Below are positions 1,864 to 54,707 of a stretch of DNA of 55,053 bases, piece by piece; the first letter of the stretch is position 1, and each line of letters starts with the position of its first letter. Under the pieces are notes generated by a model. That model saw nothing but the letters and a program-made list of their open reading frames with translations, did no database searches and was not told where the DNA came from. The position numbers and the translations under genes are program-made. Origin of the DNA: an uncultured Gammaproteobacteria bacterium (GTDB lineage: Bacteria > Patescibacteriota > Microgenomatia > UBA12405); assembly GCA_964408995.1 (NCBI GenBank), contig CAYPBP010000005.1, forward strand, positions 1 to 55,053. The letters are read 5' to 3'.

Positions 1864-4290
1864 CTATAGCTTTATTACCAAGTTTACCATTTTACCTGGT
1901 ATATATATCTCTTTAACTATCTCTTTATCCCCTATCCAAGTCTTCATTTTTTCTGTTTCTTTAGCTAACTTCAAAACTTCATCTTTACTATCTTGCATAG
2001 TAGCATCAATTGAAATTTGATCTCTCACCTTTCCGTTAATAGATATTGCTACAGTCACTTTGTCTTCAATTAAATATTCCTTATCAGCCACTGGCCAAGC
2101 AGAAGTATGAACCGATCCTAAATTATAAACAGAATACAATTCTTCAGCCAAATATGGAGCAAATGGTGCTAATAGCTTTATTAAACTCTTTATATCCTCA
2201 TTTTCAACTTTATAACTTGATAAACTTGACAAACTGTTAAGGGTTTCCATCATCTTAGCAATAGCTGTGTTGTATTTAAAATTATCTAAATCGATAGTTA
2301 CTGCCATTATTAGCTTGTTGATTAGCAACTTAACTTCTTTACTGCTAGCAATAGTGTTACCGTCTTGCGATTTAATATACTTTTCAAACCTATCTAAGAA
2401 TCTTTTAACCCCCATTAGTGTCTTTTCATTCCAAGCCATAGTTGAATCAAATGGCCCCATAAACATTAAATACATTCTTATTACATCAACTCCATAAACA
2501 TCAGCTACTGTCTCAGGCACAATCACATTACCTTTAGATTTACTCATTCTTTGATTATCTGGACCCAAAATTACCCCATGGGATAATCTTTTATAGTATG
2601 GTTCAGGTAGTTCTCTAGGAACTGCTCCTAAATCCCACAAAAACTTATAAATGAACCTAGAATAAAGCAAATGAAGCACATTATGTTCATCCCCACCAAC
2701 ATAAACATCAACCGGACCCCAGTAATTAATTAAATCTTTATCAGCCAAACAAGTATCATTATGTGGATCCATATATCTCAAAAAATACCAATCACTACCT
2801 GCCCAGTTTGGCATAGTATCAGTTTCACGAGTCGCTTCTCCACCACAAACTGGACAAGTTGTTTTTACCCAATCTGTCATTTGTGATAATGGGCTTTTCC
2901 CATCATCAGTTGGTTCATAATTTTCCACCTCTGGTAATACTACTGGTAAATTCTCTTCTTTTTCTGACACCCAACCACATTTAGGACAATTAACCATTGG
3001 AATTGGCTCTCCCCAATAATGTTGTCTTGAAAATATCCAATCTCTTAAATGATAAGAAGCTGTTGCTTCTCCAATTTTTTGCTCTTTCAACCACTCATTC
3101 ATCTTTTTAAAAGCTTCAGCTGGTACCATTCCGTTTATCGGTGGTGAATTTATCATTTCACCATTATCAACATTCACATAAGCTTCTTTATCAAAATCGT
3201 GATCTTCTTTAGGTTGAATCACTGGAATTATTTCTAAACCAAATTTCTTTGCAAAAGCAAAATCACGCTCATCATGAGCTGGAACCGACATAATTGCCCC
3301 AGTTCCATAAGAAGCCAATACAAAATCAGAAATCCAAACAGGAATTTCTTTATTATTAACTGGATTAATCGCATATAATCCCAAGAACACTCCAGTTTTA
3401 TCTTTGGAAAGTTCCGTTCTTTCTAATTCACTCTTTTTTCTAGTATTAGCTATATATTCCTTAATTTCATCATTGTCTTTTGCCATATCCAAAGCTAATT
3501 GGTGCTCTGGAGCAATCACCATAAAAGTTGCTCCAAATAATGTATCTGGCCTAGTTGTAAATACCTCTAAGCTTTCATTTCTATCTTTAATTTTAAAATT
3601 AATTTTGGCACCTTCACTTTTACCAATCCAATTAATCTGTGCCTGTTTAACCTTATCAATAAAATTAGTCTTTTCTAATCCTTCAATTAACTTATCAGCA
3701 TATTCAGTAATTCTAACCACCCACTGACTTATATTTCTTCGACTAACCTCAGCTCCACATCTTTCACATTTTCCATCAACCACTTCTTCATTAGCTAAAC
3801 CAATCTTACAACTTGGACACCAATTAATTGGCATTTCTTTTTTGTAAGCTAATCCTTTTTTAAATAATTGAATAAAAATCCATTGAGTCCATTTATAATA
3901 ACTTGGATCTGTGGTATCAACTTCTCTACTCCAATCAAAAGAATAAGCCAACCTTTTCATTTGACTTCTAAACATATCTGTATTCTCGCGAGTCACTTCC
4001 TGAGGTTTCCTTTTCATCTTAATAGCATGATTTTCTGTTGGCAAACCAAAAGCATCCCAACCCATAGGAAATAAAACATTTTCACCCTGCATTCGCTTAA
4101 ATCGAGCATAAACATCTCCACCAGTAAAAGTAAAAGCATGACCAATATGAAGACCACTTCCACTTGGGTATGGAAATTCATTTAAAACATATTTCTTTTT
4201 CTTATTAGATTTATCATCGGCCTGATACATTTTAGGATTTTCTTCCCAAAATTTTTGCCATTTTTTTTCTATTTCTTTAAAATTTTCCAT
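1864..4290 (-). CDS. leuS: Leucyl-tRNA synthetase (likely start ATG 4290)
   Basis: EFPYPSG...HIGH, GWDAFGLP, CP1 editing motifs TTRPDT and GTGAIMSVPAHD, RMSKS; the track start at 4308 lies in the terminator U-tract. Confidence 0.97.
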   Translation of the reverse strand: MENFKEIEKKWQKFWEENPKMYQADDKSNKKKKYVLNEFPYPSGSGLHIGHAFTFTGGDVYARFKRMQGENVLFPMGWDAFGLPTENHAIKMKRKPQEVTRENTDMFRSQMKRLAYSFDWSREVDTTDPSYYKWTQWIFIQLFKKGLAYKKEMPINWCPSCKIGLANEEVVDGKCERCGAEVSRRNISQWVVRITEYADKLIEGLEKTNFIDKVKQAQINWIGKSEGAKINFKIKDRNESLEVFTTRPDTLFGATFMVIAPEHQLALDMAKDNDEIKEYIANTRKKSELERTELSKDKTGVFLGLYAINPVNNKEIPVWISDFVLASYGTGAIMSVPAHDERDFAFAKKFGLEIIPVIQPKEDHDFDKEAYVNVDNGEMINSPPINGMVPAEAFKKMNEWLKEQKIGEATASYHLRDWIFSRQHYWGEPIPMVNCPKCGWVSEKEENLPVVLPEVENYEPTDDGKSPLSQMTDWVKTTCPVCGGEATRETDTMPNWAGSDWYFLRYMDPHNDTCLADKDLINYWGPVDVYVGGDEHNVLHLLYSRFIYKFLWDLGAVPRELPEPYYKRLSHGVILGPDNQRMSKSKGNVIVPETVADVYGVDVIRMYLMFMGPFDSTMAWNEKTLMGVKRFLDRFEKYIKSQDGNTIASSKEVKLLINKLIMAVTIDLDNFKYNTAIAKMMETLNSLSSLSSYKVENEDIKSLIKLLAPFAPYLAEELYSVYNLGSVHTSAWPVADKEYLIEDKVTVAISINGKVRDQISIDATMQDSKDEVLKLAKETEKMKTWIGDKEIVKEIYIPGKMVNLVIKL

Positions 4291-4306
4291 TTTTATATTA
4301 ATAAAC

Positions 4307-4330
4307 AAAAAAACCTCCTTTTGGGAGGCT
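4307..4330 (-). terminator. Intrinsic terminator of the leuS leader
   Basis: Minus strand AGCCTCC-CAAAA-GGAGG followed by a T7 run, ~17 nt before leuS ATG. Confidence 0.85.
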
Positions 4331-4356
4331 CTATATCAATAAAACTCTCCCCAGCA

Positions 4357-4395
4357 TTAGGCTAAAAGAAGAAGTCTTAAAGATGAAATTTTCAT
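4357..4395 (-). CDS. Leu-rich leader peptide MKISSLRLLLLA
   Basis: ATG AAA ATT TCA TCT TTA AGA CTT CTT CTT TTA GCC TAA; five Leu codons, four consecutive, directly before the leuS terminator. Confidence 0.85.
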   Translation of the reverse strand: MKISSLRLLLLA

Positions 4396-4415
4396 AAGCT
4401 TATTTTAACACAAAA

Positions 4416-4616
4416 TTAAAAAACCTCATTATCTTTCTGCCATTTTTCATCAACTGCCTGTTCTGTCGTTAAATACGAACCATCCTTCCACCTCATTCGT
4501 CCTTCACCTGGTTTCTTTTTCTCACTAGAACCCTCTTCTGGCTTAGGAAACCTCGCTTTCATTTCCTGTCCATTAACCATCAATTGACCATTTTTACCCA
4601 ATGATACTTCTTTCAT
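4416..4616 (-). CDS. Small hypothetical protein (66 aa)
   Basis: ATGA overlap with upstream gene; plausible composition. Confidence 0.6.
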   Translation of the reverse strand: MKEVSLGKNGQLMVNGQEMKARFPKPEEGSSEKKKPGEGRMRWKDGSYLTTEQAVDEKWQKDNEVF

Positions 4617-5371
4617 CTCATCACCATTATATCTCCTTCCTTATCTGTTCGTCTAATTTCTATCCCTTTCATTTTTAATCTATCAAAAACTTCCTTAGTT
4701 GGATGACCATATTTATTTTTTACCCCCACACTTATAATCGCCATTTCCGGTTTTAAAACATTCAGTAACTCCTCACTTGATCCATTTTTCGATCCATGGT
4801 GACTCACTTTCAGAACATCCACTTCATTTTTTAATATCTGTTGCCAAACCAATCTTTGTTCTGTTTCCAAATCTATATCCGCTGCCATAAAAATTTTTAC
4901 TTGCCCTGAGCCCACCAAAGGGTCTAAATAAGTCCAGATTCCAGCAATTGAATTCTTATTATTATCTTCATTCTCTTCGACCTTATCCTTCGGATTAACC
5001 ACCTCAAAAGACATCCAATCAGTCTTGATTAAATCAGACTGGCTCACATTTTTTGAAGTAACTAGTTGTTCAACTGTGTAATATTTCAACACATCTACTA
5101 ATCCTCCAACATGGTCACTATCCCCATGAGTAATCATTACCAATTCAATCTTTTTATCCCAAAATGGCATATAATTTTCCAAACAAGTTAATACTTTTTT
5201 ATTCTTAGGACCGGTATCAATTAACATTTGCCAGTCTTTATAAATCATCAAAGCCGCATCCCCTTGGCCCACGTCGCAAAAAACTACTTTGACTTTTTTG
5301 GATGGCAAAGTTAACCAAAATAAAATTAATAAACAAATCAAAGAAAAAAATAAAATTAATCTATATTTCAT
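4613..5371 (-). CDS. ComEC/Rec2-type metallo-beta-lactamase-fold protein (stand-alone C-terminal ComEC domain)
   Basis: CDVGQGDA, THGDSDHVGG, LKVSHHGS, NKYGHP, RTDKEG motifs; N-terminal TM helix; adjacent to comEC. Confidence 0.9.
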   Translation of the reverse strand: MKYRLILFFSLICLLILFWLTLPSKKVKVVFCDVGQGDAALMIYKDWQMLIDTGPKNKKVLTCLENYMPFWDKKIELVMITHGDSDHVGGLVDVLKYYTVEQLVTSKNVSQSDLIKTDWMSFEVVNPKDKVEENEDNNKNSIAGIWTYLDPLVGSGQVKIFMAADIDLETEQRLVWQQILKNEVDVLKVSHHGSKNGSSEELLNVLKPEMAIISVGVKNKYGHPTKEVFDRLKMKGIEIRRTDKEGDIMVMR

Positions 5372-5533: not shown

Positions 5534-6454
5534 TCATAATAATTTATCATTAGAATTTCTAAAAAATATCCAAATCAAAATCAAATAATATCCCACCATC
5601 AACATCCAATTAAACTTAATATCCACACTAGCAAAACTAAAACTTGATAGCCAATCAACCACCACTAAAATATATTTCAATAAAGGCAAGGCTAACCACA
5701 TTCCAATTTTACCTAAAATTGGAGCCAGTAATCCCAAAAAACTACTAAATATTCCCAAAATAGTTATAATCTCCACCAAAAATAAAATTAAAGCATTAGT
5801 AATTGGTGTCACCAAGCTTATTTTTCCAAAAAATAAAGCCAATATTGGCAAAATCCATAAACTTACCCAAAAAGAAGACCACAAATCACTCCACCACCTT
5901 CTTTCCTTTTTAATGTTCAAAACCACTGCTCCAAAAGCCACAAAACTTAAATAAAAACTACCACTTGAAAATACTCTATAATCAGCAAAAAACATTATTA
6001 AAACAATCAAAATTAAACTTCGTCCCAAATCAAACCTCCTTCCCAAAAGTTGTGCCCAATAAAACAAACTCATCAACAAAAATGCTCTTACCGCTGGAAT
6101 CTCAAACCCAACCCAACTCATATAAACCAAAGTAATTCCAAACCCAAAAATAATTGCTTTCTTTCTGCCAATCCAGCTTGCAAGCCTCTCCACCAATCCT
6201 TTAAAAACTAAGACTATATTCGTTCCCGAAACCACCATAATATGAATCACCCCACTATCTCTAAAATTTAAGATCGTCATCTTGTCAAAATTATCCTTAT
6301 CTCCAAACACCATTCCTGCCATTAAACTAGCTTCTCTTGGTGGCAAATTTTTAAAAATTACATCTATCAAACTATCCTTATTTACAAACTTGTACATCAA
6401 AAAGACTATTCCAAATATTCCTATCCAAACTAAAAACTTATAGTTGAATTTCAT
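5534..6454 (-). CDS. comEC: ComEC competence-domain membrane protein (likely start 6454)
   Basis: GVIHIMVVSGTNI and PAVRA motifs, many TM helices, directly downstream of comEA. Confidence 0.9.
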   Translation of the reverse strand: MKFNYKFLVWIGIFGIVFLMYKFVNKDSLIDVIFKNLPPREASLMAGMVFGDKDNFDKMTILNFRDSGVIHIMVVSGTNIVLVFKGLVERLASWIGRKKAIIFGFGITLVYMSWVGFEIPAVRAFLLMSLFYWAQLLGRRFDLGRSLILIVLIMFFADYRVFSSGSFYLSFVAFGAVVLNIKKERRWWSDLWSSFWVSLWILPILALFFGKISLVTPITNALILFLVEIITILGIFSSFLGLLAPILGKIGMWLALPLLKYILVVVDWLSSFSFASVDIKFNWMLMVGYYLILIWIFFRNSNDKLL

Positions 6455-7055
6455 TTTTAATTTTTTCAAACATTTTATCGCCAATTCCAGGTACCAATTT
6501 TATTTCATCAACAGTCTTAAATCCCCCATTTTCCACTCGATAATCAATAATCCTTTGAGCAATCGCTGGCCCTACTCCATTTAACTTATCCAATTCCTCC
6601 ACACTAGCCGAATTTATTCTAATAAATTTACCAACACTACTTGGTGAACTTATAACTTTATAACTTGATGAACTTTCCCCCATCTTGGGAATATAAATCT
6701 TCTGCCCATCAAACAACTTTTCCGCTTTATTTAAATTTAAATCTACCCAATCTCTATCAGCCTTGGCACTCAGGCCTCCTGCAGCTATCAACGCCCCATC
6801 AATTCGATCAGTATTCTTTAAATGATAAACCCCTGGTTTCATTACCTCTCCTGCTATATCAATAACTACTTCAATAGAAACTTGTACATCACTTTTAACC
6901 ACCGGGCTAATATTTTTTGACTCAATTTTTACTTCATTTTTAACCAAAAACTGATCTTTAAAATTAATCCCAATTCCTAAAATTACCAATAAAAAACCAA
7001 TCACCAATAATCCATCAACTATTTTTAGCTTCTGTATCTTTTCTAACAGCCTCAT
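6438..7055 (-). CDS. comEA: ComEA DNA receptor
   Basis: TM helix, SLBB domain (DIAGEVMKPGVY), HhH motifs (INSASVEELDKLNGVGPAIAQRII, VPGIG). Confidence 0.95.
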   Translation of the reverse strand: MRLLEKIQKLKIVDGLLVIGFLLVILGIGINFKDQFLVKNEVKIESKNISPVVKSDVQVSIEVVIDIAGEVMKPGVYHLKNTDRIDGALIAAGGLSAKADRDWVDLNLNKAEKLFDGQKIYIPKMGESSSSYKVISSPSSVGKFIRINSASVEELDKLNGVGPAIAQRIIDYRVENGGFKTVDEIKLVPGIGDKMFEKIKNEIQL

Positions 7056-9473: not shown

Positions 9474-11696
9474 ATGAAAACTAACTGCCAAACCGAACCA
9501 AATTACAAAGAATCGATCAATGTTCGAGATTTTGTTTACCAAAATATTACCCCATACGATGGTGATGCCTCTTTTTTAGTTGGACCAAGTTTAAAAACCA
9601 AAAAACTTTGGACTGAATGTAAAAAACTTTTAAAAAAAGAAACTGACAATGGTGGTGTTTTAGACATTGATACTAAAACAATTTCCAGTATTACTAGCCA
9701 CAAACCAGGCTATATTAAAAAGAATTTAGAAGTGATTGTTGGACTTCAAACCGACGAACCCCTAAAAAGAGCTATCAAACCAGCTGGCGGTATTCGAGCT
9801 GTCACCCATGCTTGTGAGGAAAACCATAAAGAAGTTGATAAAAATGTCATTGAAATTTTTACCAAATATCGTCGCACCCACAATGATGGTGTTTTCTCTG
9901 CCTATACCGAAGAAACCCTTCGACTTCGAAAAACTGGTATTTTAACTGGTCTACCAGACGCTTATGCTCGAGGCAGAATTATTGGAGATTATAGAAGAGT
10001 TGCTCTATACGGAATAGATCAATTAATTGAAGCTAAAAAAGAAGATAAAAAACAGATTAACGACACTATGACTGATGAAAAAATTAGACTTCGAGAAGAA
10101 ATTACTGAACAAATAGACGGCTTAAATTTAATGAAAGAAATGGCTCTGGATTATGGATTTAATATCAGCCTTCCGGCCCAAAATGCCAAAGAAGCTATCC
10201 AATGGACCTATTTTGCTTATCTTTCAGCTGTTAAAGAACAAGATGGAGCCGCTATGAGTTTGGGTAATGTTAGCAATTTCTTTGATATTTACATTGAAAA
10301 AGATTTAAAAAATGGCTTTTTAACTGAAGAGCAAGCTCAAGAATTAATTGATCAATTCATTATCAAACTAAGAATGGTTCGCCATCTTCGCACTACAGAA
10401 TACAATGCCCTTTTTGCTGGCGATCCAACTTGGATTACTGAATCTCTTGGTGGTTGTTGGAATAATGGTAAACATAAAGTTACTAAAACCACTTATCGCT
10501 TTTTACAAACTCTTTACAATTTAGGAGCTGCCCCAGAACCAAATTTAACTATTCTTTGGTCTCAAAACTTACCTACTCCGTTTAAAGAATTCTGTACCAA
10601 AGTATCCATTGATACTTCTTCAATTCAATATGAAAACGATGATTTAATGAGAAAAACTTGTCAAACTGACGATTATGGTATTAGTTGTTGTGTTTCTCTT
10701 TTGGAAACTGGCAAACAAATGCAATTTTTTGGAGCTAGATGCAATATTGCTAAAGCTCTTCTCTTAGCCATCAACGAAGGTGTGGATGAAGTTAGTGGTA
10801 TCAAAATTATGGATATTGAGCCTCTAAAAAGTAATTATTTGGATTATAAAGAAGTTCTTAAACGCTTTAAACTCACCACCGCCTTTCTTGCCAAAAATTA
10901 TGTTAACACCATGAATGTCATCCATTACATGCATGACAAATATTATTACGAACGAGCTCAAATGGCCCTCTTAGACACCGACGTTAAACGAGTTATGGCT
11001 TTCGGCTTAGCTGGCCTATCAGTTGCCACTGATTCACTTTCAGCTATTAAATTTGCCAAAGTTAAAGCAATTAGAAATGAACAAGGCATTGCCACTGATT
11101 TTGAAATCGAAGGTAATTTCCCTAAATATGGTAATAATGATGATTCAGTTGATTTAATTGCCAAAGATATTCTTGATAGTTTTAATCAAGAACTTCAAAA
11201 ACATCATATTTACCGAGACGCCTTACCAACTTTATCAATTTTGACCATTACCTCAAACGTAGTTTATGGTAAAAAGACTGGTTCAACCCCAGATGGCAGA
11301 AAGTTAGGAGCTCCATTTGCCCCAGGCGCCAATCCTATGCATGGTCGAGATACTAGCGGTGCTATCGCTTCCCTAAATTCTGTAGCTAAATTAGATTATG
11401 AAAATGCTAGAGATGGAATCTCAAATACCTTTTCAACTACCACCAAAACTCTAGGTGGCACCCCTAAGGAACAAACTACAAATCTATCAACCCTCCTCGA
11501 TTCCTATTTCAAAAAAAATAGCCACCATCTCAATGTTAATATCATGAATAAAGAAACCTTAATCAATGCCATGGAACATCCCGAACTCTATCCTCAATTA
11601 ACCATCAGAGTTTCTGGTTATGCTGTCAATTTCATCAAATTAAACCGCGAACAACAACAAGAAGTCCTTTCTCGAACTTTCTTTGAGACAATGTAA
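9474..11696 (+). CDS. pflB: Pyruvate formate-lyase
   Basis: [26 protein letters not shown], active-site ISCCV, glycyl-radical motif [12 protein letters not shown]. Confidence 0.97.
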
Positions 11697-11698
11697 AT

Positions 11699-12424
11699 AT
11701 GCTAAAAGTTCATTCAATTGAAACATTTGGAACCCACGAAGGACCAGGTATTCGTTTGGTAGTTTTTCTTCAAGGATGTAATATCCGTTGTCTTTATTGC
11801 CACAACCCCGATCTTCTAGAAATAAAAGGCGGCCAAGAAATGACTGTTAAAAAAATTATTGATATTGCCCAAAATCAAAAAGAATATTTTAGTGATAATG
11901 GCGGTATCACTGTTTCCGGTGGTGAACCAACTCTCCAAGCAGTTGACGTCTTAAAATTATTTAAAGCCGCTAAAAAAATCGGTATTCACACTGCTCTGGA
12001 CACCAACGGAACTATTATCAATAATGATGTTAAAAAACTCTATGATAAAACTGATCTCTTACTTTTAGATGTTAAACACATTAATGATCAAGAACACCAA
12101 AAACTAACCGGTTGCAGTAATAAAAATGCTTTAGAAATGGCTAAATTCAGAGAACTTTCTAAAAAACCAATGTGGCTTCGCTATGTTTTGGTCCCAAATA
12201 TCAATGACAGTCAAAAATTTTTAACCGATTGGGCTAACTATTTTAAAGATTATAAAAGCATTCAACGTGTTGAAATCTTGCCTTATCACACCCTTGGAGT
12301 CTATAAATATAAAGAGTTAGGGATGAAGTACTTTTTAAAAAACACCCCACCGCCTACCGACTCTTCCATTTCTCTTGCCAAATCAATCTTTGATAAATAC
12401 TTTAAAGAAGTGGTAGTTAAATAG
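11699..12424 (+). CDS. pflA: Pyruvate formate-lyase activating enzyme (radical SAM)
   Basis: GPGIR...QGCNIRCLYCHNPD, GITVSGGEP, LPYHTLG; 2 nt after pflB. Confidence 0.96.
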   Translation: MLKVHSIETFGTHEGPGIRLVVFLQGCNIRCLYCHNPDLLEIKGGQEMTVKKIIDIAQNQKEYFSDNGGITVSGGEPTLQAVDVLKLFKAAKKIGIHTALDTNGTIINNDVKKLYDKTDLLLLDVKHINDQEHQKLTGCSNKNALEMAKFRELSKKPMWLRYVLVPNINDSQKFLTDWANYFKDYKSIQRVEILPYHTLGVYKYKELGMKYFLKNTPPPTDSSISLAKSIFDKYFKEVVVK

Positions 12425-13669: not shown

Positions 13670-16309
13670 TTACTTAGCTTCAACAGCAGCTTGTGCAGCA
13701 GCTAATCTAGCGATTGGTACTCGGTAAGGGCTACAAGACACATAATTCAATCCAATTCTGTGACAGAATTTAACTGTGTCTGGATCTCCACCTTGTTCTC
13801 CGCAGATACCAATGTGAAGGTCTTTATTAACTCCTCGACCCAATTTAACTGCCATTTCCATAAGTTTACCAACACCAGCTTGGTCAACACTCTTGAATGG
13901 ATCTTCAGCCATGATTTTTTCTCTTAAATAATCTTTTAAGAATTTACCAGCATCATCTCGAGAGAATCCATAAGTCATTTGAGTTAAATCGTTGGTTCCA
14001 AATGAGAAGAATTCAGCTTCAGTAGCAATTTCATCAGCAGTTACGGCAGCACGAGGAATTTCAATCATGGTTCCAATCTCATATTTAAGATTAACTCCAT
14101 ATTCTTTCATGGTTGCTTCAATAACTGGAACTAGTTTAGCTTTTAACCATTTCATTTCTTCAACATCAGAAACTAATGGAATCATGATTTCAGGAACGAT
14201 TTTAGCACCTTTCTCTTTGGCTAATTCACAAGCTGCACTCATAATAGCTTTAACTTGCATTTGAGCCACTTCTGGGAAAGTAACTGCTAATCTACATCCA
14301 CGATGACCCATCATTGGGTTGAATTCATGAAGAGATTTTATTTTCTCTTTTAGAGTTTCAAATTGAATTCCCATTTCTTTTGCTAAAGCTTCGATGTCTT
14401 TATCTTCCTTTGGCACGAATTCGTGTAGAGGTGGATCAAGTAATCGAATTTTAACTGGAAGTCCGGCCATGATTTCAAATAATTGTTTGAAGTCATTTTT
14501 TTGCATTGGGAATAATTTTCCTAAAGCAGCTTCTCTTTGCTCTAAAGTGTCAGAGATAATCATTTGGCGAATAGCAAAGATTCTGTCTTCTTCAAAGAAC
14601 ATGTGTTCAGTTCTACAAAGACCAATACCTTGAGCTCCAAATTCTCGAGCCACTTTGGCATCTTTTGGAGTGTCTGCATTAGTTCTGACATTCATAGTTC
14701 GATATTTATCTGCCCATTTCATTAGAGTTTCAAAATCTCCACTCAAAGCCGCTTCCATGGTTGGAACTTGACCTAAAAAGACTTCACCAGTAGAACCATC
14801 TAGAGTAATGAATTCGCCTTCTTTTACTTCTAAATCATCTACTTTAAACATTTTGGCAGATTCGACAACTGTTATTGATTCACAACCAGCCACACAACAT
14901 CGACCCATACCTCGGGCTACCACAGCCGCATGAGAAGTCATTCCACCTCGAGCAGTCAAAATACCAGAAGCAGCATTCATACCAGCAATATCTTCAGGAG
15001 AAGTTTCAGCTCTAACTAAAATAACTTTTTTACCATTTTCAACCCAATTCACAGCTGTTTCTGCATTAAAGACCACTTGTCCATAAGCAGCACCCGGTGA
15101 AGCTGGTAAACCTTTAGCAATAACTTTGAAATCAGATTTAGCTTTAGGATCTAACATTGGATGAAGTAATTGATCTAATTTATCAGCTTCAACTCTAGTT
15201 AAAGCAGTTTTTTCATCAATCATACCTTCAGCTACTAAATCAACCGCTACTTTTACCATAGCTGGAGCAGTTCTTTTAGCATTTCTGGTTTGCAAAACAA
15301 ACAATACTCCATTTTCAATAGTAAATTCAACGTCTTGCATATCCTTGTAATGTTTTTCTAATCTATCAAAAATAGCAATAAGTTCTTTATAAACAACTTC
15401 ATTATCTTCTTTAAGAGAATCAAGTTTTTTAGGAGTTCTAATTCCTGCTACCACATCTTCACCTTGAGCATTCATCAAATATTCTCCATAAGCTTTATTT
15501 TCTCCAGTTGAAGGATTACGAGTAAAAGCCACCCCAGTTCCACAATCATCACCCATGTTTCCAAAAACCATAGCTTGGACGTTAACTGCAGTTCCAAAGA
15601 TTTTTTTCTCATCAACTTTATTTAATTGACGATAAATACAAGCTCGTGGATTATTCCAAGAACCAAAAACAGCATTGATAGCTCCCCAAAGTTGGACTTT
15701 AGCGTCACTTGGAAAATCTTTACCTTTTTCAACTTTATAAAGTTCTTTATAACCTTTAACCACTTCTTGCCAATCTTCAGCTGTCATTTTGGTATCTTCT
15801 TGAATCCCTTTTTTAGCTTTAACAGTGTTGATAATATGTTCTAATTTTTCATGTTCCATGCTTTCAACCACATTACAATACATTTGAATAAATCTTCGGT
15901 AAGAATCCCAAACAAATCGAGCATTACCAGTTTTTTCTACCATTCCTTTGACCACTTCTTCATTTAAACCTAAGTTTAAAATAGTGTCCATCATTCCAGG
16001 CATTGAAGCTGCAGCTCCAGATCTAACTGAAACTAAAAGTGGATTTTTAACATCTCCAAATTTCTTACCAGTTGTTTCTTCTAATTTCAAAATTCCCTCT
16101 TCAACTTCTTTTTCTAATTCGACAGGATATTGATTGCCATTATTATAATAGTATTGGCAAACTTCGGTTGACAAAGTAATACCGGCTGGAACTGGAATTC
16201 CAAGATTAGTCATTTCGGCAAGATTAGCTCCTTTACCACCAAGAATATATTTCATATCCTTGTCACCTTCAGCTTTTCCATTACCAAAAAAATAGACGTA
16301 TTGTTTCAT
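13670..16309 (-). CDS. ppdK: Pyruvate, phosphate dikinase
   Basis: LGGKGANLAEM, VSVRSGA..SMPGMMDT, GGMTSHAAVVARG, IGLCRTEHMF, FSFGTNDLTQ. Confidence 0.98.
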   Translation of the reverse strand: MKQYVYFFGNGKAEGDKDMKYILGGKGANLAEMTNLGIPVPAGITLSTEVCQYYYNNGNQYPVELEKEVEEGILKLEETTGKKFGDVKNPLLVSVRSGAAASMPGMMDTILNLGLNEEVVKGMVEKTGNARFVWDSYRRFIQMYCNVVESMEHEKLEHIINTVKAKKGIQEDTKMTAEDWQEVVKGYKELYKVEKGKDFPSDAKVQLWGAINAVFGSWNNPRACIYRQLNKVDEKKIFGTAVNVQAMVFGNMGDDCGTGVAFTRNPSTGENKAYGEYLMNAQGEDVVAGIRTPKKLDSLKEDNEVVYKELIAIFDRLEKHYKDMQDVEFTIENGVLFVLQTRNAKRTAPAMVKVAVDLVAEGMIDEKTALTRVEADKLDQLLHPMLDPKAKSDFKVIAKGLPASPGAAYGQVVFNAETAVNWVENGKKVILVRAETSPEDIAGMNAASGILTARGGMTSHAAVVARGMGRCCVAGCESITVVESAKMFKVDDLEVKEGEFITLDGSTGEVFLGQVPTMEAALSGDFETLMKWADKYRTMNVRTNADTPKDAKVAREFGAQGIGLCRTEHMFFEEDRIFAIRQMIISDTLEQREAALGKLFPMQKNDFKQLFEIMAGLPVKIRLLDPPLHEFVPKEDKDIEALAKEMGIQFETLKEKIKSLHEFNPMMGHRGCRLAVTFPEVAQMQVKAIMSAACELAKEKGAKIVPEIMIPLVSDVEEMKWLKAKLVPVIEATMKEYGVNLKYEIGTMIEIPRAAVTADEIATEAEFFSFGTNDLTQMTYGFSRDDAGKFLKDYLREKIMAEDPFKSVDQAGVGKLMEMAVKLGRGVNKDLHIGICGEQGGDPDTVKFCHRIGLNYVSCSPYRVPIARLAAAQAAVEAK

Positions 16310-20995: not shown

Positions 20996-23584
20996 GTGGA
21001 TAAACTATCTTACAAAACTCTTCTCATCATTTTATTTTCTCTTTTAATCGCCATTGTTATCCTGCTAAGATTTTTTATCATCAAACCGAATTCCGCCGTT
21101 GCCGCTTGGTGGGATGATGCTTGGAGTTATCGAAAAAGTATTAGCGTTAATAATACTGACAATCAACAATCAAATGTTTATTTAACCGTTACCATTGACA
21201 CTTCTGATTCGTCTAAATTTCAAAGCGATTGTGGTGATATTCGTTTCACTGATCAAAATAATAATCTTTTAGATTATTTTATTGTTTCTGGTTGTGGTAG
21301 TGATTCAACTGTTATTCACGTTAATTTCCCCACTTTGATAGCTGGTAATAGCACTTTTTATCTTTATTATGGCAATTCATCAGCTCCAAACGGCTTCAGT
21401 TTATTTGATTTTGCCACTGCTGCTACTAATTCCACTCCCAGTTTAAATTCTGAAGAAACTTCCCCTACTCCAGCAATTTCACCAATAATTCTAGGTGGTC
21501 AAGCAGGCAACCCTACTCCAGCCCCACTTCCTTATGAGCCACTTATATATTATAAATTTGACGAAGGTTATGGAAATACTTTTAAAAATTATGGCAGTCT
21601 TGGAGAGTCTTTAAACGGTGTCTTTGGTACTGCTGGCACAATTCCAGCTTGGATAGATGGAAAATATAATAAAGGTTTAGATTTTGGTACTAGTTCAATT
21701 GCTATATCATCAAGAACTTCTTCTTTATTAGACTATAATGCCACCAATGGTCTAACTTTAAGTGCTTGGATAAAAGCTAGCCCAAACGAAACCAATGGTG
21801 GCCACATAATAAGTAAACCTTGGACTAGTGGCGGAGTTTACAACTATAGCTTGTTTTATAGTTCTACTAAAAGAATAACTTTTAATGTTAGAACAGCAGC
21901 TACCACCTACACTTTAACTACTGGAATCACCGTTCCGGCTGACCAATGGGCTTATGTAGCCGCCACTATAAATCCAGACACTCAAACTGCCAATATATAT
22001 ATCAATGGCGTAGGTATTACTTCAAGATCTGATATTTCAAATGATTTTAATATTACTAGTAATAATATAAAATTAGCTCTTGGATGTCTTTATCCTTATC
22101 CTAATTCTTGTCATCTTGCAACTTTTCAAAACTTTCTTGGCTCTATAGATGAAGTTAAAATCTACAATGTCGCCCTAACTGCTAATCAAATTCTTCAAGA
22201 TTATAGTTATAATCAAAATCAATTTAATACTAGTTTTGGTTCTTCTCTCCAAACTATCAGCAATGTCACCACTCCAATAGAATATTGTATTCCTGGTGAT
22301 ACTTCTTTTTGTATACCTCCTGTCATGGAATGGAATTTTGAAGAAGGATTTGGTGATGCTATAGTCGACAGTGGTAGTAATATTGGTAGTACTTTTGTGG
22401 GAACACCTGCTCGTGTAACTGGCAAAATTGGTCAAGCAATGAGTTTTGATGGTTCAACTAATGGCATAAAAATAAGTACCACCAACACTTATGTTGATGA
22501 AACTATGTCAGCTTGGGTTTATATTGACTCATCTTCACCCAGTGGAGACATTGTTGGCAATTGTCACACCAACATTAATAGTGGTTATGGATTTACATTT
22601 TATCTAGATGGTAACACTTTAAGAACTAAAGCTGGCACTAACAATAAATCAAATTTCTATAACAATATCACTTATGATGTAACCAATCAAAAAAACAAAT
22701 GGTTACATCTAACTATGAGTTGGGATAATCTAGGAACAGGCGCCACTGGATTAGCTAGTCCTCTTGGATGTGATACAACCGTAAAATTGTATGTTAATGG
22801 TCAATTAGTTGATGAACACACAGATAATTTAACCGCTACTACCGGTTACACCTGTACTAAAGCATATGACTACCCTTTTTCTATGGGTGGAACCCTAACT
22901 AGTTCATCAACTAGATTAACCAAAGTCAAACTCGACAATGTCAGAGTTTATAATTATGTTCGCACCCCTGCCCAAGTTGCCTACGACTATAACAAAGGAG
23001 GACCTGTTGGGTGGTGGAAACTCAACGAGTGTCAAGGTTCAACCGCTTTTGATTCATCTGGATTAGGCAATACTGGCATCATTTCAATAGGTCAAAATGG
23101 ATCACAAGATACTCTTGGAACCTGTCAAATTAGCACCTCAGCAGCTTGGAAAAATGGTGCTAGTGGTAAACTAAATTCTTCACTAAATTTTGATGGTACA
23201 GATGATTATATTAACCTAGGTAGTATTACCCCCAATGTTAATAGTGTTTCTTTTTGGACCAAACCATCATCTAATAACCAATATTTTCTCCAACTATCAA
23301 ATGATTCGTATATAACAATGTCATCTGGGACAATTTCTACCACTGGTTTTAGTTCAGCTACTATCTATATTAATGGTAAGACCACAAATCTTTTACCAGA
23401 TAACAACTGGCACCATATAACCATAGTTACCGATACAAATATTATCCCCCAAACAGTTTATATTGGAAAAGCTTATAGTAATTACTACTCTGGCCAACTA
23501 GACGATATTCGATTTTATAACTACCCTCTAACAATTGAACAAGTCAAAATCTTATACAACAACGGAGTAGCTAATTTTAATTAA
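20996..23584 (+). CDS. DUF2341-like plus three LamG/concanavalin-A-like domain surface protein
   Basis: WWDDAWSYRKSI, DCGDIRFTD; repeated YYKFDEG/WNFEEG/WWKLNE starts and GSIDEVKIYN/LDNVRVYN/LDDIRFYN ends. Confidence 0.85.
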   Translation: MDKLSYKTLLIILFSLLIAIVILLRFFIIKPNSAVAAWWDDAWSYRKSISVNNTDNQQSNVYLTVTIDTSDSSKFQSDCGDIRFTDQNNNLLDYFIVSGCGSDSTVIHVNFPTLIAGNSTFYLYYGNSSAPNGFSLFDFATAATNSTPSLNSEETSPTPAISPIILGGQAGNPTPAPLPYEPLIYYKFDEGYGNTFKNYGSLGESLNGVFGTAGTIPAWIDGKYNKGLDFGTSSIAISSRTSSLLDYNATNGLTLSAWIKASPNETNGGHIISKPWTSGGVYNYSLFYSSTKRITFNVRTAATTYTLTTGITVPADQWAYVAATINPDTQTANIYINGVGITSRSDISNDFNITSNNIKLALGCLYPYPNSCHLATFQNFLGSIDEVKIYNVALTANQILQDYSYNQNQFNTSFGSSLQTISNVTTPIEYCIPGDTSFCIPPVMEWNFEEGFGDAIVDSGSNIGSTFVGTPARVTGKIGQAMSFDGSTNGIKISTTNTYVDETMSAWVYIDSSSPSGDIVGNCHTNINSGYGFTFYLDGNTLRTKAGTNNKSNFYNNITYDVTNQKNKWLHLTMSWDNLGTGATGLASPLGCDTTVKLYVNGQLVDEHTDNLTATTGYTCTKAYDYPFSMGGTLTSSSTRLTKVKLDNVRVYNYVRTPAQVAYDYNKGGPVGWWKLNECQGSTAFDSSGLGNTGIISIGQNGSQDTLGTCQISTSAAWKNGASGKLNSSLNFDGTDDYINLGSITPNVNSVSFWTKPSSNNQYFLQLSNDSYITMSSGTISTTGFSSATIYINGKTTNLLPDNNWHHITIVTDTNIIPQTVYIGKAYSNYYSGQLDDIRFYNYPLTIEQVKILYNNGVANFN

Positions 23585-24765: not shown

Positions 24766-25209
24766 ATGACTGCCCAAATCTTTGAATCCTACCAAAACTG
24801 GCTTAAAGCAAGATCTTATTCCAGTGCCACCATTAGAAACTACTTAGTTGACCTTAGAAAATACTTTCTTTTCACTAATCGAGATTCAGACGAGATATCA
24901 GATAACATTTTCAATTCAGACAATTTAAGCTCTTACTTTCAAAACATTAACCAAGACCAAAATTATAAACGTTTTTTAGCTTCGCTCTCTAAATTCTTTC
25001 AGTTTGCCTTAGATCAAAAACTAATTTCCAAAAGTCCTTTCAAAGAAGCTCTAAAAAATAATCAAGAAATAAAAGGCCATGATATTCCATCGGCTATAAA
25101 TTTATATAAACAACAGCTTGTTGCTAAAAAATCATCTCCATCAACTATACGAAACTATATCAACGACATTCATCAATTTATTAATTGGGCTTCAAGTGAA
25201 CCTAAATAA
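24766..25209 (+). CDS. Integrase core-binding (SAM-like) domain protein, 1.5 domains, no catalytic domain
   Basis: WLKARSYSSATIRNYLVDLRKY...KRFLASLSKFFQF...SPF, then QLVAKKSSPSTIRNYINDIHQFINW. Confidence 0.8.
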   Translation: MTAQIFESYQNWLKARSYSSATIRNYLVDLRKYFLFTNRDSDEISDNIFNSDNLSSYFQNINQDQNYKRFLASLSKFFQFALDQKLISKSPFKEALKNNQEIKGHDIPSAINLYKQQLVAKKSSPSTIRNYINDIHQFINWASSEPK

Positions 25210-28200
25210 TCTATTTACTACTTCTCGTCTAAACGAATATACTGCTTTCTTAAAAAGCACCAATCTTTCTGATGCCAGTCTTAAACGTAAGCTTTCTTCT
25301 CTTTCTTCTTTTCAAAAATTTTTAGTTAAAAAGAAACTAATTCAACCTGATTCAAACCCACTCACCTTCCAAACACCTTCTTTTAGCAACGAGACTATAA
25401 AAAAAAACATTGAAAACTCTATAAACCAACCTGAATTAAAAGCTAATTTTTTAAAAAAAATAATTTCCCGTTTCATACCAGATACTAAATACTTAATACC
25501 AAATACTAAACCAAACAATTTCTTATTCCGTTACATAACCATTTTCTCTCTTTTTGCTATTGGCGTTGGTCTTGGCTTCACTCTCTATCAACAAGCCTTT
25601 ATTCAATCAAATAAAAATCTAGCTTATTCAAATGCCAATAATCCAGTCAAAGCTGGTCGTTTTCTTTCCTTTCAAGGCCGTTTAACTGACTCTAGTGGTA
25701 ATCCTATTGTTGCAGAAACTGAGATCTATTTTCAACTTTGGAATAAAGATATTGGGGGTACTATGCTTTACACCACACTAGACAATGGTAACAGTCAAAC
25801 TGTTATCCCCGACGAAAATGGTATCTTTTCCATCACTATTGGTAAAAGTCATGGACCAGAAATACCTGCTGATGTATTTTCTGAAAATGCCGAAATTTGG
25901 TTGGAAATTACTGTTGACGATGAAACAATGGAACCTCGCCAACCTATTGCTACTGTTGCCTATGCTCTCAATGCTGAAACCTTGCAAGGTTTACCACCAG
26001 ATGCTGGCGGTTATAAAGATACAGTGCTAGTTATAGATTCCGAAGGTAACTTAAACTTAGGAGAAACTTCTCCTACTATCAAATCTATATCTGGGACCAT
26101 GGGTATTGAAGGTCAAGCTATTCTTATTAAATCTTCTGAAGGTTCTGGTGGCAATATTGATATTAATCCAGATGGTCAAGGTATAGTTCAGTTAATTAAC
26201 GAAGCTAGTGATGGTAGCCTTGTTGTTAGTAATACAAATTTAATAATGGGTAATCTTATTACTGGTCAAGTTAATACCGAAGAACGTGGCTATAATTTCA
26301 TCGATTTTCAAAATAAAGATGCTTTTGGTGATTTAACTAGTCGTTTCTCTGTCAATTCCTATGGTGATGCTTATATAGACAATGATTTAACTGTATCAAA
26401 CAACGCTGATATTGGTGGTAGCCTTTCTGTAAGTGATTATTCTATTTTTTCTAAAGGTATCGGTATCACTGGCAATTCTGCTTTTAATAATAATCTTTCT
26501 ATTGGTGGGACTTTAACTTTATCTCAAAATCCTGGAGCTGGTAAAATTCTTCAATCAGATGCTTTTGGTAATGCTTCTTGGGTTGACAATAACGGCAGTG
26601 GTGTAGGTGTTAGTTATTTTTCTGGATCAGGTTTAACTTTAAATAATGATACTTTCAAACTAGGCGGTGCCTTAACTGAAAATATGCGTCTTAATATTGG
26701 AAACACAGAAGCTTTTTATATTCAAAATTCAACTGGTAATATCGGTCTTGGTACCACTAATCCCACAGCAAAGCTTAGTGTAGTTGGTGATATTGGAGCT
26801 AATCAACTCAACATCACCACCTCAGGTGAAACTTTTGGACCTGGTACTATTATTTACTCAGCTAACTCCAACTTATCGGGTTCCATAAATACTGGCGATT
26901 TTAATAATGATGGTAAAACAGATTTAATTATTAACGATCAATATTTTTACAGGGTTAGAGTTTTTACTGGTAATGGTGATGGTACTTATCAAAATAGTAC
27001 TATTCATCAAACTAATGATATTAGTTATTTTGATCCATCATCAATAACTATCGCTGACTTCAATAATGATAATTATGACGACTTTGCTATTACTAGTAGT
27101 AATTATAGTGATCAAATTATTGTCTTTATTAATAATCAAAATAGTGATTTTGATTCTGGAACTAGTTATTTGGTTGATGGCTATTCATCTTCCATTAATA
27201 GTGGTGATTTTAATGGTGATGGATTTATTGACTTATTAACTAATAATCCAGACAGTAATAACATTAGTGTTTTTCTTAATAATAATGGTACTTTTGGAAC
27301 GGGTGTTACTTATTTCAGTGATACTTATGTATATAATACTGAAATTAGTGATTTTAATAGTGATGGTAAAGACGATTTAATTTATTTAGATGGTTATTCA
27401 GGTGACTTAACTGTAGTTCTTAGTAATAATGGCACTTTTGGAACTGGTGTTACTTATCCAACAAATAATTATGGAGATATTGAAATTAATGATTTTAATT
27501 TTGATGGTAAAAACGATTTTGTCGTTTATGATGGGTATTCTTTAGATGTTTATCTTAATAACAATGGTACTTTTAATAAAAGTACTTTTAATATTTCAAC
27601 AAGTGGTGTATCTCAAATTAATAGTGGTGATTTTAATGGTGATGATTATCCTGATTTAGTCACTAATACAGATTCCAACAACATTGCTGTTTTAATTAAT
27701 AATAATGGCACTTTTGAAAGTAATATTTACTATCCAACTAATGGAGATATATCAACTTCTATCACCACCGGTGATTTTGATAGTGATAATAAAGACGAAA
27801 TAGTATCAATCAATGGTAATACTAAAGTCAGTTTTTTTAATGAAAGACCAAACATATCTATCATTACTGATAATATTGGTAACATTGGTATTGGAACTAC
27901 TTCTAACTCTTTATATAAACTAACTGTTGTTGGTGATGCATTATTTTCTAATAAACTTTCAATTGGCGGTACTCTTTCAGCTAATTATATTTCATCTACC
28001 AATATTTACAATACCAACTCTGTATCCACCAGTAGTCTTTATACTACTTCTTTTAGACTTGCTAATAATGTTCATAATGGATATATTTTAACGAGTGATG
28101 TTTGGGGTAATGGCATTTGGACTGCCCCTTCAACTATTGGTACCAATTATGTTGCTGGCAACGGTATTACTATTAATAGTAGTAACCAATTTAAGCTTGG

Positions 28201-43987: not shown

Positions 43988-45085
43988 TTATCTTAGTCTA
44001 CTCAACGGATCAATTTTTCCATTTGGACCAATAACTTCAAAATGCAAATGAGTTCCTGTTGACCTTCCTGTGCTTCCCATAGTCCCCAACCTTTGACCTT
44101 GTCTGACTGCTTGTCCAGATGTGACAACTATCGAATTACTTAATAAATGAGCATATAAAGTAGTAAAACCATTTCCATGATTAATAACAACATAATTACC
44201 ATAACCACCACCATTCCAACCAGCACTAACCACAGTTCCACCTTGTGCCGCAATAACTGCTGGATTTGAACGATTAGCAATATCAATAGCCCGATGGTAC
44301 CAAGAATATCTTTGACTAACCGACCCAGAAGTCGGCCACATAAAATTACCTTCACCTACTAAACCTGGAATTGGAGCCACTATTCTGGAAGCATATTTTT
44401 GACTATCAATTACTACTTCTTTTGGTTTAATTCCGTCTGGAATCATCAGTTCTTGACCAGCACTAAGAGCAAAGGTTTCATCATTACTAAAAGTATTAAA
44501 AGGATAATCAATTATGTTCTGAGGATTAACCTGATGAGCTTTAGCAATATTATAAATAGTTTCCCCTCTTTTTACTTTATACCTAACTCCAGTCACTGGT
44601 AATATTTTTAATAATTGTTTCACCTTAATAGAATCAACTGACTTAAGGTTGTTTTCCCACATAATTGTGTCAATTGTCACTCCAAATTTTTGAGCAATCG
44701 ATGACACAGTATCCCCGTCAGCCACTCGATATTCAGTTATTTCTCCTTTTGGCAAACTAGAAACCAAAGTATCAGCTATATTATTATCGGCTGCCATAAT
44801 TAAATAACCACTTCCACTGCTTTTATCATTTCTACTACCACTTATTAAAGATTCTAATTGGCTTGAAAAAACTATGGTTAAAAAAGCCAAAGCTGCCATA
44901 CTAGCTCCAATAAAAGTCTGCGAAAATCTTCCTCTTTGACGATACATCGATCTAGCAAAAAATACTTTTAAAAACTCAGCCCAACCTAAAAATCTCTTTC
45001 CAAATCCATTAAAAAACTCTCCTTGTGCTTTTAAAAACCCCTTAAACAGGCCTATTTCATCTTCAATGTTTTCTTTAATCGACAT
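43988..45085 (-). CDS. LysM x2 plus M23 metallopeptidase
   Basis: YRVADGDTVSSIAQKFGV, YKVKRGETIYNIAK, HRAIDIA, YGNYVVINH, STGTHLHFEV. Confidence 0.93.
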   Translation of the reverse strand: MSIKENIEDEIGLFKGFLKAQGEFFNGFGKRFLGWAEFLKVFFARSMYRQRGRFSQTFIGASMAALAFLTIVFSSQLESLISGSRNDKSSGSGYLIMAADNNIADTLVSSLPKGEITEYRVADGDTVSSIAQKFGVTIDTIMWENNLKSVDSIKVKQLLKILPVTGVRYKVKRGETIYNIAKAHQVNPQNIIDYPFNTFSNDETFALSAGQELMIPDGIKPKEVVIDSQKYASRIVAPIPGLVGEGNFMWPTSGSVSQRYSWYHRAIDIANRSNPAVIAAQGGTVVSAGWNGGGYGNYVVINHGNGFTTLYAHLLSNSIVVTSGQAVRQGQRLGTMGSTGRSTGTHLHFEVIGPNGKIDPLSRLR

Positions 45086-54428: not shown

Positions 54429-54456
54429 AAAAAAAATCTCCCAATTATTTGGGAGA
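54429..54456 (-). terminator. Terminator hairpin immediately before rpsA
   Basis: TCTCCCAA-ATAA-TTGGGAGA followed by T8, ending 4 nt before ATG. Confidence 0.8.
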
Positions 54457-54583: not shown

Positions 54584-54707
54584 GAATTCTGGCCACGACC
54601 TATTTTCAAGATCCCTTACGGGAAGACTATTGTCGGCGCTAAAGAGTTTCACTTCTCTGTTCGAAATGGGAAGAGGTGGTGCCACTTCGCTCCAATGACC
54701 AGAGTTC
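54584..54707 (-). rRNA. rrf: 5S rRNA
   Basis: Helix I GAACTCTGGTC/GGCCAGAATTC, CACCTCTTCCCATTTCGAACAGAGAAGTGAAA, GAAAATAGG. Confidence 0.95.

Follow-up and report, generated by a model that had tools for sequence, protein, structure and literature searches.

A candidate leucine leader-peptide attenuator ahead of leuS in a Patescibacteria contig

The leuS leader in the window

The gene leuS, which encodes a leucyl-tRNA synthetase (LeuS or LeuRS) of 808 amino acids (aa) from the ATG at 4290 (4290-1864), lies on the minus strand of a 55,053-nucleotide (nt) stretch of contig CAYPBP010000005.1 (assembly GCA_964408995.1), here called the window. It is preceded by a short open reading frame (ORF) with a run of Leu codons and by an intrinsic terminator. 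From the sequence and its comparison with relatives, we consider it likely that this leader is a leucine-responsive, ribosome-mediated leader-peptide attenuator controlling leuS and probably also the M16-family peptidase gene (1756-524, minus strand), which is found 107 nt 3' of leuS with no terminator between the two.

Read on the minus strand, the leader begins at an extended -10 promoter box, TGtTAAAAT (TGTTAAAAT, 4410-4402), from which the 6-nt spacer AAGCTT (4401-4396) leads to the ATG (4395-4393) of an ORF of 12 codons and a TAA (4395-4357; TAA at 4359-4357). The codons, ATG AAA ATT TCA TCT TTA AGA CTT CTT CTT TTA GCC TAA, encode the peptide MKISSLRLLLLA, and the run CTT CTT CTT TTA (4374-4363) holds the putative regulatory Leu codons and forms the core of region 1. 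The sequence TGCT separates the TAA from the G-run of region 2, which consists of GGGGAGAG (4352-4345) and a U-rich flank (4355-4340 in all) and can partner either region 1 or the 5' arm of the terminator. Region 3, AUAGAGCCUCCC (4334-4323), is the 3' half of the predicted antiterminator, and its positions 4332-4324 double as the terminator 5' arm. The terminator itself (3:4) reads AGAGCCUCC-CAAAA-GGAGGUUUU with a T-run of seven (4332-4307; hairpin 4332-4310, T7 4313-4307), and the leuS ATG stands 16 nt past the T-run. An initial annotation, made from the sequence alone, had described this series of promoter box, leader ORF, G-run, hairpin with T7 and leuS, and each element was found at the minus-strand position given there, exact to the base. 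Since most of the 120 closest LeuS homologues begin at the corresponding position, with the N-terminus MENFKEIE.KW or a near variant, the ATG at 4290 is, by homology, the real leuS start.

The full leader of the window folds as 1:2 plus 3:4, in which 1:2 pairs the Leu codons CUUCU with GGGAG and includes their flanks; measured against dinucleotide shuffles, this fold has z = -2.77, and 3 of 200 shuffles fold at least as well. The terminator first described as CCTCC-CAAAA-GGAGG-T7 is present, although its stem is longer than that (9 bp, -11.4 kcal/mol), and the same holds for the antiterminator GGGAG:CTCCC, whose helix extends to 12 bp (GGGAG:CUCCC plus GUUUUAU:AUAGAGC, -14.7 kcal/mol). A ribosome stalled on the Leu codons was represented by masking the RNA up to it; the structure of lowest energy was then 2:3, which consumes the whole terminator 5' arm.

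Six leaders compared

The closest LeuS proteins (up to 80-82% identity) come from metagenome-assembled genomes (MAGs) labelled Candidatus Shapirobacteria, of the Patescibacteria, and 20 distinct leuS upstream regions of the Shapirobacteria type were compared. This comparison, of the kind proposed as a check in the initial annotation, supports the interpretation given there: the in-frame Leu run and the pairing stems are kept in six lineages. The other 14 of the 20 lack the element. The fraction of six in 20 overstates the true frequency of the cassette, because the sampling was partly aimed at likely positives: P0091 was picked because its mis-called N-terminus, PPKIGGFF, resembled a translated terminator, P0053 and P0066 were taken as relatives of the locus L007, and P0117 as the nearest relative of P0091. 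The cassette-bearing loci are the window, L007, L203, L204, L206 and L211, and in all of them the cassette lies directly ahead of leuS or of a 76-aa ORF and leuS.

The promoter and start in L007 read TGgTAAAAT-AGGCTA-ATG and the leader peptide is MKLLIVSLLLN, with UUUUGGGGGA as region 2 and the terminator GCCCCC-AAGU-GGGGGC-U5. L203 has TGaTATAAT-TTGCT-ATG, the peptide MKQRLGLLLLK, region 2 GAAGGGGAUC and the terminator (GAU)CCCCC-GAAAAUU-GGGGG-C-U8. In the related pair L204 (= L205) and L206 (= L207), the starts are TGaTAGAAT-AGGGAA-ATG and TGgTAGAAT-AGGGAA-ATG, the peptides MKMLSVSLLLS and MKMLIISLLLS, the second regions GGGGGAAC and GCGGGGGAAC, and the terminators GCCCC-CAUGA-GGGGC-U7 and ACCCCC-AAGA-GGGGGU-U7, respectively. 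L211 combines TGgTATAAT-GGTTTT-ATG with the peptide MTNSKNLSLLLLG, region 2 GAGGGGUC and the terminator ACCCCG-UGAGAA-CGGGGU-U6. The architecture shared by the six is thus an extended -10 box, 5-6 nt, ATG, an ORF of 11-13 codons, a stop, a G-run and a terminator with a C-rich 5' arm; this hairpin and its T5-T8 run always stand between the leader ORF and the next gene, with 4-18 nt from the T-run to the next ATG. The TGn and TAnAAT motifs are invariant in the alignment and the box lies 5-6 nt before the ATG in every case, a gap that leaves no room for a Shine-Dalgarno sequence and fits the earlier suggestion that the leader peptide is leaderless. The LeuS proteins behind the six leaders share about 67-73% identity between lineages (93% in the L204/L206 pair), and unweighted pair group (UPGMA) clustering places them in three or four groups.

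Each leader carries a run of cognate Leu codons upstream of leuS (LLL or LLLL in 6/6). In all six, Leu occupies positions -4, -3 and -2 relative to the stop; the codons at -4 are CTT, CTC, CTA, CTA, CTC and TTG, the codon at -3 is always CTT, and those at -2 are TTA, CTA, TTG, CTT, CTT and TTA. Position -1 holds A, N, K, S, S and G, position -5 holds L, S, L, S, S and L, and earlier positions are variable. Four synonymous Leu codons are therefore in use at each of two of the three invariant positions in only six sequences, and this switching between CTN and TTR with Leu kept points to selection on codon identity and not on a pyrimidine-rich pairing strand alone. The observation bears directly on the possibility of an RNA-only switch, responding to a protein or small molecule (for instance by LeuRS autoregulation, or to uncharged tRNA), in which the ORF would be untranslated and its Leu codons a by-product of CUN-rich pairing. 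Operator control of synthetase genes of the ThrRS type is known, and the Leu runs do consist of 75% CTN codons against 37% in genome usage, as pairing with the G-run demands. However, such a switch would not call for TTA and TTG at invariant Leu positions, where CTN/TTR switching fits selection on the amino acid or the codon class, nor for an in-frame ATG at leaderless distance from the -10 box in 6/6 and a stop constrained relative to the G-run. In addition, about 90 nt is too small for a tRNA-binding leader, and the Rfam searches described below, T-box included, gave no family match. We regard an RNA-only switch as improbable.

In every one of the six leaders, 21-22 nt (22 nt in the window) separate the start of the G-run from the first base of the run's first Leu codon. 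The spacing from stop to G-run, 3-7 nt overall, is 3-4 nt in the four-Leu leaders and 7 nt in the three-Leu leaders, such that run length and spacing compensate. A ribosome reaches about 13 nt beyond the first base of its A-site codon; with this reach assumed, the G-run stays accessible when a ribosome waits at the first, second or third Leu codon and is covered by a ribosome at the stop. The compensating spacing would be hard to explain without a ribosome as the ruler. An attenuator of this geometry might still report general translation capacity, namely ribosome availability or any slowdown of elongation, and not leucine specifically: any such arrangement also terminates when the leader is not translated, and Leu is the most common residue class here, at 9% of codons. 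This strikes us as very improbable, since an unbroken series of three invariant Leu codons, set a fixed distance from region 2 and ahead of the cognate synthetase gene, is the signature of an amino-acid-specific device. The pattern MK...LLL-x common to the peptides could also suggest that the ORF is a separate small gene with its own terminator, encoding a functional hydrophobic micro-peptide. Such a role has next to no probability in our estimate: conservation is limited to the Leu run, with the MK start present in five of the six, 11-13 aa are too short for a membrane span, the element is always tied to leuS through the short distance between T-run and next ATG, and the 1:2 and 2:3 alternatives would be left unexplained.

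The 1:2, 2:3 and 3:4 alternatives claimed at the outset were all predicted by folding, as mutually exclusive helices, in the window and in the five relatives, and the computed antiterminator shares the terminator 5' arm in 6/6. In L203, for example, GGGGAUC and GAUCCCC form a perfect 7-bp 2:3 helix. With the ribosome on the Leu codons and arm 4 not yet made, 2:3 forms in the four cases computed, at -12.2 to -14.7 kcal/mol (-10.0 to -12.2 kcal/mol with narrower arms); in whole-leader folds, 2:3 stays the minimum only for some stall positions, and the terminators of the leaders fold at about -10 to -15 kcal/mol. Compared with mononucleotide shuffles of the spacer, the 2:3 energies gave p = 0.022, 0.025, 0.005, 0.20, 0.034 and 0.049, and were better in five of six leaders. 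RNAalifold on an unedited MAFFT alignment returned as consensus exactly 1:2, in which the regulatory codons of region 1 pair with the G-run of region 2, plus the terminator. The consensus 1:2 helix joins columns 45-50 with 71-76, with 88.9% of cells paired and compensatory changes in 3/6 pairs. In a model-based alignment, 87.5% of cells pair and 7/12 pairs show compensatory changes, values reached by 0/500 shuffles. The window's U4326 faces A4316 in the terminator and A4348 in the antiterminator, where the other five leaders have, by inspection, a C facing G and G; this change from U-A to C-G was counted by the tool for the terminator pair only.

Upstream of the leader in the window lies a co-directional competence cluster on the minus strand, with comEA (7055-6438), two comEC-like ORFs (6484-5534 and 5371-4613) and, as its last member, a conserved 66-aa ORF (4616-4416) whose stop is 5 nt before the leader -10 box. 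We therefore weighed whether the hairpin could simply be the terminator of this comEA-comEC-66aa operon, with the short ORF arising by chance and a leuS promoter located after the hairpin. The upstream gene is indeed co-directional in the window, L203 and L211, AT-rich -10-like hexamers are readable between the T-run and the leuS ATG, and in the first 12 kb of the window terminator-like sites show no enrichment (6 found versus 5.2 expected from shuffles). But the same cassette is present in L007, L204 and L206, where the upstream gene is divergent, which argues against an upstream-operon terminator, and no convincing, properly spaced -10 box is conserved past the T-run. Chance would also have to account for a Leu frame, a stop position, a G-run and a distance of 21-22 nt that are all conserved. 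The terminators of the window itself are informative on this point. Strict hairpin plus T-run sites number five in 55 kb, and because all of them are intergenic and on the strand of the preceding gene, intrinsic terminators appear to be used in the source organism. Three lie 15-24 nt past the stop of a protein gene, one follows the 5S ribosomal RNA (rRNA) gene, and the fifth is that of the leuS leader, 84 nt past the upstream stop, and is thus oddly placed for a simple 3'-end terminator. An upstream-operon terminator beside a chance ORF consequently receives scarcely any weight from us.

The 66-aa ORF, which sits between the comEC gene with the lactamase domain and leuS, carries the motif MRWKDGSYLTxEQ and had no Pfam match; its homologues are found upstream of leuS in L003 and L103. 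The 76-aa ORF of L204 (1263-1493) and L206 (1262-1492) carries a CxxC motif, likewise had no Pfam match, and is placed between the attenuator and leuS, so that the leader would control both. In L208, an unrelated 70-aa ORF precedes leuS and there is no attenuator.

The specificity of the arrangement was assessed with a descriptor that asked for a short ORF containing at least three identical consecutive residues, with a hairpin and T-run no more than 60 nt past its end. Applied to about 3 Mb of strand, it found five Leu-run background sites, none upstream of a leuS, and five distinct sites directly upstream of Shapirobacteria leuS genes; the sixth leader was found later. By our own arithmetic, about 1.7 background sites per Mb correspond to about 0.005 expected in a 150-nt target zone at 20 loci. 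The sole other match in the window, at 13741, is inside the pyruvate phosphate dikinase gene and was discarded. A covariance model (R1) built from the six leaders recovered only those six when run on the window, the other loci of the Candidate Phyla Radiation (CPR) and leuS loci of other phyla; the loci outside the window amounted to about 1.5 Mb, of which other phyla made up about 1.3 Mb. Among its rejected matches, weak ones at four loci of one LeuS type, judged SAR11-like, were plain GGCCCC terminators. Another (L182, 8801-8896, minus strand; 29.7 bits, E = 0.05) belongs to an unrelated organism of higher GC and has no amino-acid run; there, TGATAAAAT is followed by 6 nt, an ATG, the peptide MKHTNDNG, a stop and a GCCGG hairpin with T-run, about 170 nt before gap-pgk, and it may be due to chance or be a different leaderless leader. 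Rfam gave no family match at threshold in the window or in the five other leaders. The Phe_leader family (RF01859), whose gathering score is 55, reached 26 bits in the window, mainly through the terminator, and nothing in the five homologues; this hit was set aside. Searching 4150-4750 with the T-box covariance model gave nothing, even with E <= 10 allowed, and the model matched none of the five other loci; Leu_leader and other Rfam leader families did not match L007, L203, L204, L206 or L211.

Proposed mechanism, distribution and genomic setting

The features conserved in the six lineages, namely the cognate-codon ORF, the terminator, the exclusive pairings and the stop placement, support the leucine leader-peptide attenuator of leuS proposed in the initial annotation. 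We infer the start of leader transcription, its translation, the stalling, the synchrony of ribosome and polymerase and the direction of the response to be as follows. Transcription would start at or next to the A of the leader ATG and yield a leaderless ORF of 12 codons. With Leu-tRNA-Leu plentiful, the ribosome would reach the stop and its footprint would extend over the G-run of region 2, which starts 4 nt further on; the 3:4 hairpin with U7 would then form and transcription would end before leuS. With Leu-tRNA-Leu scarce, the ribosome would stall on CUU CUU CUU UUA, hold region 1 and leave region 2 free, because the G-run begins 22 nt from the first Leu codon, just past the leading edge of the ribosome. 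The free region 2 would pair with the terminator 5' arm (2:3), and RNA polymerase would read into leuS. Without translation, as in RNA read through from the comE genes, 1:2 and 3:4 would form and transcription would terminate; comE read-through transcripts would carry the leader untranslated and meet the same terminator, so that the hairpin might serve both purposes.

Co-transcription of the M16 peptidase gene with leuS is probable: among the Shapirobacteria-type loci retrieved with gene calls, most keep the leuS-M16 synteny, and only 0-3 nt separate the two genes in L212, L213 and L214. The M16 protein is of the insulinase type, and co-expression of a peptidase with LeuRS under leucine shortage would make sense in an auxotroph.

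Several points weigh against this attenuator. The support is computational, and the leucine response, the transcription start and the 3' end are putative. Because the leaderless leader is only about 90 nt long, a ribosome would have very little time to load and arrive at the Leu codons before the polymerase gets to the terminator. It could catch up only if the polymerase paused; no pause signal common to the leaders was found, and the UUUU after the 1:2 hairpin of the window is not conserved in the others. With 4 G-C pairs, the leader terminator is weaker than the other four strict sites in the window, and the L204 antiterminator is the one that does no better than shuffles. Covariation statistics are weak, with six sequences of which three come from one clade, and the helices join G-runs and C-runs, such that a partner slid by one column is still 83% paired; the covariation appears supportive rather than decisive. 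Finally, the element is absent in 14/20 distinct relatives, including all of the nearest LeuS relatives inspected (80-82% identity), and is thus dispensable, patchy and not general in Patescibacteria.

The relatives without the cassette are L001-L005, L201, L202, L208/L209, L210, L212-L214, L215, L216-L218, L103 and L091. Most of them have a -10 box 5-8 nt before the ATG of leuS itself, which makes leuS leaderless. The promoter of the window, TTTTGTGTTAAAATAAGCTT-ATG, is nearly identical to the TTTTTGTAGTAAAATAGCCT-ATG fused to leuS in L001, L201, L202 and L212, so that the cassette is placed between leuS and a leaderless promoter common to these loci. Judging from these sequences, the cassette can evidently be lost or gained without loss of expression, and it appears as a small, patchily distributed family in Shapirobacteria. 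Metagenomes were also scanned with a degenerate DNA pattern for the LeuS N-terminus, which was specific on 80 genome loci; the matches were mostly LeuS of Bacteroidota-, SAR11- and Bacillota-type organisms, and none of the about three CPR-like leuS loci had a leader cassette. Two further candidates were rejected. The poly-Leu short ORFs (MLLLLLLLLLLLILLS) found 159 nt upstream of leuS in L139/L160 are out of frame inside a membrane-protein gene and have no terminator. We also dropped the possibility that ATGAAAATTTCA, with which the leader begins, is left over from the leuS start ATGGAAAATTTCA of relatives, as the likeness is too weak and other leaders also begin with ATGAAA.

A TTG at 4308-4306, in frame with leuS and 5 nt past GGAGG, is a possible alternative leuS start. 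The T-run is followed by a G, giving a TTG, in four of the six leaders (window 4306-4318, L007 ~2962-2972, L203 ~500-512, L206 ~1250-1262); in all four, this TTG shares the frame of the following ORF's ATG and comes 3-7 nt after the terminator 3' arm (GGAGG or GGGGG). The arm and the TTG could be a Shine-Dalgarno sequence and an alternative start exposed only in the antiterminated RNA. Weighing against this, most genes of the window lack a Shine-Dalgarno sequence and LeuS homologues begin at the ATG; a role of GGAGG as the leuS Shine-Dalgarno sequence is putative and forms no part of our main claim. A broader scheme would unite these elements in a CPR-specific family of leaderless attenuators that senses charged tRNA-Leu in leucine scavengers, co-regulates the M16 peptidase and so ties tRNA charging to the breakdown of peptides, and adds a translational layer through the Shine-Dalgarno-TTG pair; the cassette would come and go as one piece between leuS and a leaderless promoter that stays in place. 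We find this scheme, taken as a whole, doubtful.

The gene starts in the window, whose GC content is 33%, provide the setting for a leaderless leader. Besides the general lack of Shine-Dalgarno sequences, many genes begin 5-8 nt behind a TAnAAT box (e.g., 43988-45085, 51984-53228, 20996-23584 and 6438-7055), such that leaderless or Shine-Dalgarno-independent initiation seems to be the norm in the source genome. A Rho factor gene (46755-48116, minus strand) is present together with the strict hairpins, so that Rho and canonical intrinsic terminators occur side by side in the genome. Other products encoded in the window are pyruvate formate-lyase and its activating enzyme (9474-12424, plus strand) and the pyruvate phosphate dikinase mentioned above (13670-16309, minus strand). 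A hairpin UCUCCCAA-AUAA-UUGGGAGA with U8 (54429-54456, minus strand) lies between the 5S rRNA gene (54587-54703) and the S1 gene (53288-54424), with its end 4 nt ahead of the S1 gene ATG, and is likely the terminator of the rRNA operon, right at the start of the S1 gene. On the plus strand, 25118-39475 is a single ORF of 4785 aa, and the product of 20996-23584 has Laminin_G_3 and DUF2341 domains; both are probably giant surface proteins, which are common in CPR genomes. No other synthetase gene besides leuS was present among the 20 window ORFs scanned with Pfam (19 of the 26 ORFs of at least 200 aa).

Relation to known attenuators

Patescibacteria, or CPR bacteria, have tiny genomes with few recognisable regulators and are mostly uncultured, and our literature searches found almost nothing on their nutrient sensing. 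Full-text searches, of incomplete coverage, found no report of leader peptides or attenuation in Patescibacteria/CPR; a leuS leader attenuator in this group is apparently unreported, and the principle is already known. If the attenuator is real, transcription and translation would be coupled tightly enough in these cells for the position of a ribosome to decide termination, and leaderless translation would be fast enough to act as a sensor. At least some lineages would then tune a synthetase, and probably a peptidase, to the charging of tRNA-Leu, in organisms thought to import their leucine. The element is small and sharply defined, and with the covariance model and the descriptor it can be searched for across CPR genomes and ahead of other synthetase genes, while its patchy presence (6/20 loci) offers natural comparisons with and without it.

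Attenuation in the trp, leu, his, thr, ilv and pheA leaders is textbook knowledge. The leader described here shares with that of the enterobacterial leu operon the consecutive Leu codons in a short ORF, the 1:2/2:3/3:4 alternatives and the intrinsic terminator, but the enterobacterial leader is longer, led by a Shine-Dalgarno sequence and placed before leuABCD for biosynthesis, whereas here a synthetase gene would be controlled. In Escherichia coli, pheST is attenuated through the pheM leader peptide, and more synthetase is made when charged cognate tRNA is low; this attenuator is also cited in PMC1262725. That operon resembles the present case as a synthetase operon under a cognate-rich leader peptide with terminator and antiterminator alternatives; its leader has a Shine-Dalgarno sequence, reads Phe codons and belongs to a gammaproteobacterial host, in contrast to a leaderless Leu leader in Patescibacteria. 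Mycobacteria have leaderless poly-Cys short ORFs that attenuate downstream operons and that are similarly leaderless, very short and built on a codon run for a single amino acid. They show no obvious intrinsic terminator and precede biosynthesis genes, unlike our leader with its canonical hairpin and U-run. Candidate Cys leader peptides without terminators have been noted (PMC1262725).

Most synthetase genes of Firmicutes are controlled by T-boxes (PMC1262725). The leuS T-box of Bacillota has the gene, the logic (uncharged tRNA-Leu leading to read-through) and the use of a terminator and an antiterminator in common with the leader of the window; it binds the tRNA directly, has no leader peptide, and spans about 200-300 nt with conserved motifs, unlike the short leader-peptide element found here.

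The closest known system is the leuL2-leuS attenuator of Streptomyces. Classical attenuators were predicted before leuS and trpS in this genus in 2005 (PMC1262725), and a transcriptome-based re-annotation of S. lividans in 2021 placed before leuS a leaderless 12-aa LeuL2, MRAVRLLLSEPR, followed by a hairpin and a U-stretch (PMC8079986). Both systems would regulate leuS through a leaderless 12-aa leader with a three-Leu run, a terminator between leader and leuS, and the classical alternative of antiterminator and terminator. They differ in the position of the Leu run, which is mid-peptide with four more codons after it in LeuL2 and is followed here by one codon and the stop, and in their hosts, high-GC Actinomycetota there and 33%-GC Patescibacteria here. 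Streptomyces makes its own leucine. As a rule CPR bacteria do not, and the lack of leucine biosynthesis that the initial annotation supposed for the source organism would be in keeping with this general picture. In view of the two phyla and their GC contents, we assume an origin independent of leuL2, the resemblance being functional. For specialists in attenuation, the leader of the window would thus be a further independent case of a leaderless leuS attenuator of the Streptomyces type, and it introduces no new principle.

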